A DNA stretch of 64,000 nt from positions 64,480,001 through 64,544,000 of the forward strand of contig OZ024743.1 in NCBI GenBank assembly GCA_964016885.1, read 5' to 3'. Both the position numbers and the translations under genes were made by a program. Origin of the DNA: Eledone cirrhosa. Taxonomy: Eukaryota. This document shows positions 47,641 through 47,842 of this stretch, piece by piece (within the stretch, counting starts at the first letter, position 1; each line of letters begins with the position of its first letter). Below the pieces are notes generated by a model, which was not told the DNA's origin, searched no databases, and worked only from the letters and a program-made list of their open reading frames with translations.

Positions 47641-47842
47641 TAGGAACCAGTAAGACCCCGACAGCTGAGCTCAAGCCGTTTCGACGGCTAATTCTGGACT
47701 GAATGTCCAGAATTAGCCGTCGAAACGGCTTGAGCTCAGCTGTCGGGGTCTTACTGGTTCCTATTACCCACTCTACTACCTCAAGTATTGAGTACTTTGG
47801 TGCGTTATGGTCCACCTGGTTCCTTACCACATTTCCTTCGTT
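47641..47842 (+). mobile_element. Family F1 copy with perfect 59-bp inverted arms
   Basis: 47641-47699 is the reverse complement of 47705-47763 around a 5-nt loop; (TA)n on both sides. Confidence 0.85.

Follow-up and report, generated by a model that had tools for sequence, protein, structure and literature searches.

The palindromic insertions of family F1 in the genome of Eledone cirrhosa probably each consist of two cDNAs that ran off the capped start of an RNA, a start lying inside loop II of a hammerhead ribozyme, and were then joined head to head. F1 itself is almost certainly the terminal repeat, together with a 78-nt tail, of an autonomous Penelope-like element (PLE). In the mechanism that we favor, both nicked strands of a (TA)n target would each prime a cDNA, one at element position 138 and the other at position 60; each cDNA would extend as far as the capped 5' end of its template, an RNA whose start is predicted to lie within loop II, and would run off there; the two ends would then be united by error-prone end joining. 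If the RNA starts inside the hammerhead, its CUGANGA half was never in the template and so did not have to be deleted each time, as had been supposed in the initial annotation of this DNA, which attributed the insertions to cDNA self-priming or template switching at the stem II hairpin. What that annotation had observed was partly confirmed, and the cause it proposed was only partly right.

F1 copies in the window

The window, i.e., the whole 64-kb stretch of DNA analyzed, is rich in microsatellites, and the eight copies or fragments of F1 previously counted in it were all found (at 830, 12798, 34235, 34466, 46443, 47640, 48314 and 63699). In the copy at 47640-47842, arms of 60 and 138 bases stand on either side of a 5-base junction, and (TA)n flanks the whole on both sides, as had been described (left target 47425-47642; (TA)n-rich right target 47842-48013). 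Positions are numbered here from the G of GTCCAG as 1 (window 47705; L094:4850, in the long copy described below), 0 being the A that precedes it in un-inverted copies. The short, tail-less arm (47640-47699, minus strand), which is the inverted copy reported upstream of the sense motif, spans positions 1-60, is identical to L094:4850-4909 and adjoins (TA)n at its outer end, position 60, which would be a fixed inner start point of reverse transcription. The first base of the head-to-head junction (47700-47704) is the templated A(0), and the remainder is untemplated, snap-back or variant-template sequence. The long arm (47705-47842, plus strand, RNA sense) spans positions 1-138, comprises the pseudo-LTR end and the tail, and is identical to L094:4850-4987. 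The 78-nt tail is found on this arm only (47765-47842, plus strand); in the full element the same sequence (L094:4910-4987) continues into the leader of an open reading frame (ORF) whose ATG is at 5080.

The quoted sense motif was located at 47705-47749, and its sequence is indeed that of the 3' half of a type I hammerhead (47714-47749, plus strand), incomplete and predicted to be inactive. It comprises the 3' strand of stem II (47714-21), GAAA (47722-25), stem III (47725-43), a predicted cut after C 47744 and the 3' strand of stem I (47745-49). A second complete stub lies at 48314-48519 on the minus strand (94% identical to L094), its long arm reading as sense on minus and its short arm lying on plus. 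The remaining copies are an older stub whose short arm is internally deleted (830-1010, minus, 85% to L094), a 32-base fragment (12798-12829, minus, E 2e-4), a long arm alone that ends two bases beyond position 1 and gives way to unrelated sequence (34235-34376, minus, 88%), a stub of a divergent sister subfamily (34466-34607, minus, 74% over 102 bases), an older stub with its tail interrupted by (TA)n (46430-46637, plus, 79%), and a stub with its long arm cut near position 54 (63699-63845, minus, 90%).

Other repeats share the window. One at 48013-48246, between two F1 stubs, belongs to another family with a canonical CTGATGA hammerhead core (at 48144), and canonical CTGATGA cores of other repeat families, mostly ending in (TA)n, lie at 21534 and 39646 on the plus strand and at 11615 and 24444 on the minus strand. 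A 480-base tandem (15893-17167, 99% identity) with a CTGATGA..GAAA motif on the minus strand (16727 and 16247) is possibly retrozyme-like, and tRNA-like repeats that we take to be of SINE type occur at 44756-45425 and 6738-7233 in tandem copies with (ATT)-rich ends, some of them back to back.

The family across the genome

The genome examined (3.0 Gb, 1,796 contigs) held 27,655 exact matches to a 33-base arm sequence, far more than chance would give, and none to its backwards control. Arms have two fixed 3' ends, at positions 60 and 138, in a ratio of about 1:1, the tail ends counted at (TA)n numbering 20,158 and the short ends 19,292. The adjacency to (TA)n noted in the window extended to the genome, where 154 of 182 paired elements had it on both sides and 25 on one. 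The best 40 whole-element matches were 94-100% identical, and at 28 loci the junction letters varied among near-identical copies and the ends were constant. Variants of the 47640 copy that had been read as copy-specific (aaccagtaag, gacagctgag) are those of a subfamily: they are unchanged in the full-length L094, and the locus L002 is 100% identical over 199 bases.

A view of the 200-base palindrome as a non-autonomous mobile unit in its own right, akin to a MITE, SINE or retrozyme and copied whole with a mutable loop, is very unlikely to be correct, even though the palindrome's copy number is very high and two loci, L001 and L002, are identical, junction included. Junctions vary between near-identical copies, each major stub haplotype is found in un-inverted long copies, and the stubs are without a TATA-like word. 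In addition, the tail end and the end at position 60 are not mutual inverted repeats, and of the 182 elements only 4 share flank words, none of them a fixed target-site duplication, with the proviso that short duplications are invisible inside (TA)n. The fixed terminal inverted repeats and target-site duplications of a DNA transposon, which the initial annotation had named as counting against its own reading, were thus not seen in these elements, and a MITE or cut-and-paste transposon was rejected on the same grounds. A non-LTR retrozyme, defined in the accessible text of bioRxiv 10.64898/2026.07.22.740005 by tandem non-coding units each with a complete hammerhead, was also rejected, since the stubs hold half motifs and the long unit is protein-coding.

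Perfect palindromes next to microsatellites assemble poorly, and a fold-back artefact of assembly or library might for that reason be suspected; we regard it as extremely unlikely. The ends are fixed at 60 and 138, one-arm mutations are graded by age, and the contigs of one public run (of four), which may be the source sample, have strand-change joints and the same steps, with changes in depth and loose ends at L094:4845, 4909 and 4989. At another locus (L059), an F1 short arm lies close to an exon whose translation is presumably fibronectin-type-III-like.

The parent element and its clade

L094, the one detailed among 21 regions examined, holds an intact unit that runs from an inverted 3' part through a partial tandem, a repeat, an ORF of 719 aa (from L094:5080) and a 3' UTR to a final repeat ending at position 60. 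Both arms of the window copy at 47640 are 100% identical to it. L094 is the stub design enlarged, extending about 830 bases from the tail start and about 4,980 from the short start; the length of the F1 parent unit is about 3.1-3.5 kb. About 400 bases of 3' UTR in its upstream repeat (L094:3990-4430) are missing from the last repeat (7530).

The single ORF has the motifs DIESYY, YRDD and VIY..YIG, in an arrangement of reverse transcriptase (RT) and then a GIY-YIG endonuclease at the C terminus. It had 2,054 homologues, the top one with a Pfam GIY-YIG match; a direct Pfam scan of the 719 aa returned no family (RT part, E 0.063) and a PDB search returned no match. RWR at residue 37 and DKT at 117 are shared by 114 and 112, respectively, of the 120 homologues listed. 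There is a CxCX5C linker (CNCPDRSIC, 572), a CxxC (CNLC, 670) and a CxH (CKH, 698), CCHH is absent, and a single cysteine lies between VIY and YIG. Judged by these residues, the L094 protein carries the motifs of the Hydra clade of PLEs with C-terminal endonuclease, which includes Hydra-1_Obim and which, in the accessible sections of Craig et al. 2021 (PMC8557442), is alike in its RWK-like, DKT, CxCX5C, CxxC and CxH motifs and in having no CCHH. The Neptune clade was rejected, as the CX2-5CxxC linker and CCHH given for it in the same sections were not found in the ORF.

Hydra elements as described there are also alike in their short single ORF, (TA)n targets and 3'-end hammerhead, and one listed member has a 5'-truncated inverted copy. 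A pseudo-LTR, a partial tandem, an inverted 5' copy, a one-sided tail and a repeat-borne variant hammerhead are all present in L094 and in L176-L189. The F1 parent is a new family of a known clade, and its layout was already known. Besides its unit length and 78-nt tail, it differs in the ribozyme: the Hydra hammerheads in the table of that paper all have a CTGANGA core and a short loop II, and that of Hydra-1_Obim, from an octopus, is a different, canonical sequence, whereas F1 has a TTGANAA core, a loop II of 37-39 nt and a stem III of 5-6 bp.

A probable variant hammerhead

The initial annotation predicted an un-inverted master with cccc and CTGANGA directly before gacggcta. A master without the inversion does exist, its cccc followed by a core that immediately precedes a strand resembling gacggcta, but that core is TTGANAA: upstream of single arms in the sampled regions the sequence reads ACCCC-TTGAGAA-G(A/C)TCGGCTA, and its core has 3,917 matches in the genome (young subfamilies only). 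CTGANGA directly before gacggcta occurred in no copy, the 15 matches all retaining at least TTTC of the inverted arm, and a pattern search found no CTGANGA master among 39 further matches, 30 of which were examined and proved to be junction noise, mutated arms or chimeras. The hairpin gacggcta..ctggac-loop-gtccag..tagccgtc, formerly taken for stem II, is formed instead where the two arms meet; un-inverted copies have a different sequence, G(A/C/T)TCGGCTA, as the 5' strand of stem II.

Cores were compared in 45 distinct upstream sequences, of which one is a false row: TTGAGAA was found in 26, TTGATAA in 6, TTGAAAA in 3, TTGACAA in 1, CTGAGAA in 6 and other cores in 2. Core position 7 varies (G, T, A or C) while G5, A6, A8 and A9 stay constant, which is the pattern that a U3-A8 core predicts; U3-A8 was present in 36 of the 45 and C3 with A8 in 6. 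The full motif (L094:4796-4899) has a three-way junction as its minimum-energy fold, though one no better than that of shuffled sequences (z -0.58), and several subfamilies fold differently. In the 30 of the 45 sequences that were aligned, helix pairing was kept in 87% of cells, with no two-sided changes and at a level no better than shuffles, and an Rfam scan of the window and the full motif gave no hammerhead match. It is very probable that this variant hammerhead is genuine.

Long arms appeared to start at the first base after the predicted cut in 176 cases, against 19 at one control position. Of 100 such starts listed, 23 resembled G-run slippage; 10 of 12 loci inspected were true, and in 6 the other arm stopped at or next to the same base. 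The local start profile of 194 arms had no spike at the predicted cut. The post-cut starts suggest, indirectly, that the hammerhead may cleave in vivo. A subfamily with C3 opposite A8 (L117, L178, L186, L291; 17 of 100 rows listed from the 3,917 matches) has spread despite its predicted poor core, and cleavage may therefore be dispensable.

The sharp upstream edge

Breakpoints were taken from 74 tail arms and 30 short arms, sets chosen on their 3' ends alone within the first 28 Mb of contig C1. The tail arms stopped at -4 to +11 in 40 cases, at -60 to -5 in 3, at -249 to -61 in none and at 12-138 in 27, and 4 ran through; the short arms stopped at -4 to +11 in 20 cases and in neither of the two upstream intervals, with 4 running far upstream and 6 stopping further inside. 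The upstream edge is accordingly sharp, 60 of the 104 arms stopping within 16 nt inside loop II and 3 in the next 56 nt; roughly nine in ten arms are stubs and about one in ten continue upstream. Breakpoints had been expected to pile up at the hairpin and they do pile up at one spot, but inside loop II and not at the base of stem II.

Core promoters are recognized by consensus words, the TATA box and the initiator, and a comparable arrangement surrounds the edge. A TATA-like word, TATTTAAA, starts 29 nt before A(0), and initiator-like words (TTAGTC/TCAGTC and TCATTT) put an A at 0 and at -4. In several subfamilies the TATA-like sequence is weak (TATTCAAA, TATTTATT), and it overlaps stem II. 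The arms likely end where a capped RNA would start. About 14 of the first 50 loci (of 221) reach -9/-10 on both arms, so some templates must start further upstream. The repeat of Drosophila Penelope is described as having a TATA-less promoter (PMC2377424, accessible part).

Beyond the edge there is an excess of untemplated C, which a capped RNA end would be expected to leave. From 222 arms examined, 24 of which read through and 113 of which were informative, the first untemplated base was C in 11 of 18 ending at A(0) or A(-4) and in 13 of 76 ending elsewhere (Fisher p 4e-4). Among the 5,881 genome rows, the base after the A was G in 55, C in 39 and T in 6 of the first 100. Once 62 rows attributable to the template of another subfamily, to the partner arm, to the target or to direct joins were set aside (48 G, 12 C, 2 T), 27 C, 7 G and 4 T were left, a hand tally that counts both arms of some elements, some of which bear the extra base on both. 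Untemplated 5' G in L1 has been interpreted as a copy of the cap (PMC6425141, accessible part); the C of F1 need not copy a cap and would point to the end of an RNA or to a preference of the enzyme.

In a variant of the two-cDNA scheme, nuclease cleavage or splicing within the loop of an inner hairpin would generate the RNA end, in place of a transcription start. The edge at -4/-5 coincides with that loop, on its 3' side, and subfamilies preserve the stem in differing registers; TTTTCATTTAG is similar to a 3' splice site, and the intron of Drosophila Penelope is reported to end at its hammerhead (PMC4209133, accessible part). On the other hand, junctions have no shared upstream exon, the C excess is found at A(0) yet a single A/T is found where arms stop at the predicted ribozyme cut, and the TATA spacing recurs in two families, all of which leaves this variant unlikely.

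A second palindromic family

The other family with that spacing is also abundant (L006, L011, L013, L019, L237, L290, L291), and in its palindromes the turn falls on an A that lies 30 nt behind TATAAATA; it was tested after the idea of a capped start had been formed. Its turning point is the first base of helix I, in which matched changes occur (AGATTC/GAATCT, AGCTTC/GAAGCT), and the complete hammerhead follows the start; a start inside the ribozyme is therefore not general. In 100 of its 10,822 rows, tallied by hand, about three quarters read through, 9 were direct joins and 7 of 11 others continued with C. The strand imbalance of the rows (3,931 vs 6,891) hints at a tandem array. Separately, one 11-base word, GTATTGAGTAC, occurs in both the F1 tail (window 47784-47794) and the tail of the second family (L006, L019) and is a candidate signal for protein binding or initiation.

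The relationship between the two arms

The initial annotation held that the arms were copied from, or homogenized with, their own copy. The first part was upheld to the extent that both arms come from the same source, subfamily type agreeing in 122 of 123 pairs against a shuffled mean of 41.6 (182 pairs, all loci). Later homogenization was not borne out, as private changes were found on one arm 206 times and on both arms 8 times in 5,297 sites, where 1.5 both-arm changes were expected and 4 of the 8 look like alignment artefacts. The arms are not copies of each other.

These numbers bear on the fold-back explanation, in which a single cDNA stalls at stem II or the inner hairpin, folds back and copies itself, much as self-priming, on an antisense template, has been proposed for Penelope palindromes (PMC3846280, accessible part). 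The agreement in subfamily type and the 8 shared changes count in its favor, as do the coincidence of the edge with a hairpin loop, a recurrent GAATT addition that resembles a local snap-back, and the 6 of 47 paired tail-anchored elements in which the tail arm reaches further. In 12 of the 47, however, the tail-less arm extends at least 5 nt further, 7 of these sharing no sequence with the tail arm, and, given that a folded-back cDNA cannot supply sequence that was never copied, such pairs call for two cDNAs, unless the inequality of the arms was mimicked by deletions at a later time. The junction predicted by self-priming on the natural loop was seen in 0 of the first 50 of 221 loci. Moreover, stems III and II should arrest a cDNA at their bases (positions 39 and 17) rather than at 0, and the second family turns at a different structural position but at the same distance from its TATA word. 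Fold-back at the hairpin is on balance quite unlikely, and we continue to prefer two cDNAs.

In 25 of the first 100 of the 5,881 rows, the junction was CTGGACT joined to GAATT, and a few bases of snap-back copying may occur at the joint. This commonest junction (L083, L088, L098, L108, L113) is asymmetric, with the short arm at A(0) in 6 of 8 and no clear microhomology, and its asymmetry is something for which the two-cDNA model has no account. Rare inserts unite an F1 arm with coding cDNA of another family (L033, L034) or with other sense positions of the same element (L198, L289, L303). Chimeras of an F1 arm with coding or non-coding cDNA of other Penelope-like families were noted at L033, L034, L031, L048, L040 and L056.

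A possible strong-stop cycle

In LTR elements, minus-strand strong-stop DNA is primed near the 5' end of the RNA, runs off at the cap and is transferred by way of the R repeat. By analogy, a complete hammerhead at the 3' end of the F1 RNA would cut after position 40 and leave a terminal repeat of 41-45 nt, to which run-off cDNA could transfer; the stubs would then be failed transfers and the arms that continue upstream successful ones. The F1 scheme differs from that of LTR elements in that the primer would be target DNA, with two start sites, and in its putative transfer step. The start-to-cut distance is known from two cases only, being 41-45 nt in F1 and about 45 nt in the second family. 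We give transfer through a ribozyme-defined terminal repeat somewhat less than even weight, and a circular RNA, as put forward in the accessible text of PMC4209133, or tandem read-through would explain longer-than-unit copies equally well. More tentative still is a complete two-primer strong-stop cycle for PLEs, in which a promoter within the hammerhead would yield a capped sense RNA, both target strands would prime close to its 5' end, the 5' hammerhead copy would be uncleavable, the 3' copy would define the repeat, and run-off cDNA would either transfer or be joined head to head.

Comparison with other Penelope-like elements

The inverted pLTR insertions of Penelope, with a one-sided tail of 30-40 bp, are alike in their head-to-head repeat, one-arm tail and partial tandems, and differ in that the F1 tail is 78 nt and about nine in ten F1 arms stop at one spot; the accessible parts of the papers concerned ascribe these palindromes to self-priming on a possibly antisense template or leave their origin open (PMC3846280, PMC8557442, PMC2377424). 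The Poseidon protein PAc of Anolis nicks and extends both target strands in vitro, mostly on uncut RNA, and, as in F1, two internal initiation sites downstream of the hammerhead bound the tail; as far as the accessible text of that study goes, its scope did not take in the 5' junction, the transcription start or inverted products (PMC11167929). The minimal hammerheads of the Schistosoma PLE Cercyon also have U3-A8 covariation in the pLTR, and motif pairs lie on opposite strands 100-700 bp apart, but they have no stable helix III and need dimers, whereas the helix III of 5-6 bp in F1 predicts activity as a monomer (PMC4209133, accessible part). The accessible portion of PMC13282606 makes no mention of hammerheads. 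Our search of the openly available literature found no paper that states a turn at a capped start or a two-cDNA origin for such palindromes.

Meaning for PLE replication

The origin of inverted ends, tails and partial tandems, the RNA strand that is copied and the role of the hammerhead are given as open questions for PLEs in the accessible parts of PMC8557442, PMC3846280 and PMC11167929. Some 20,000 young stubs and an intact parent allow predictions for PLE replication at the level of single bases: capped sense RNA from two positions, two initiation sites separated by 78 nt, and cleavage 41 nt beyond the start. U3-A8 ribozymes escape searches for CUGANGA, and hairpins of this kind should be annotated as by-products of a retrotransposon and not as MITEs or miRNA genes. 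If the strong-stop reading is true, full-length and partial-tandem copies would be generated without a circular RNA.
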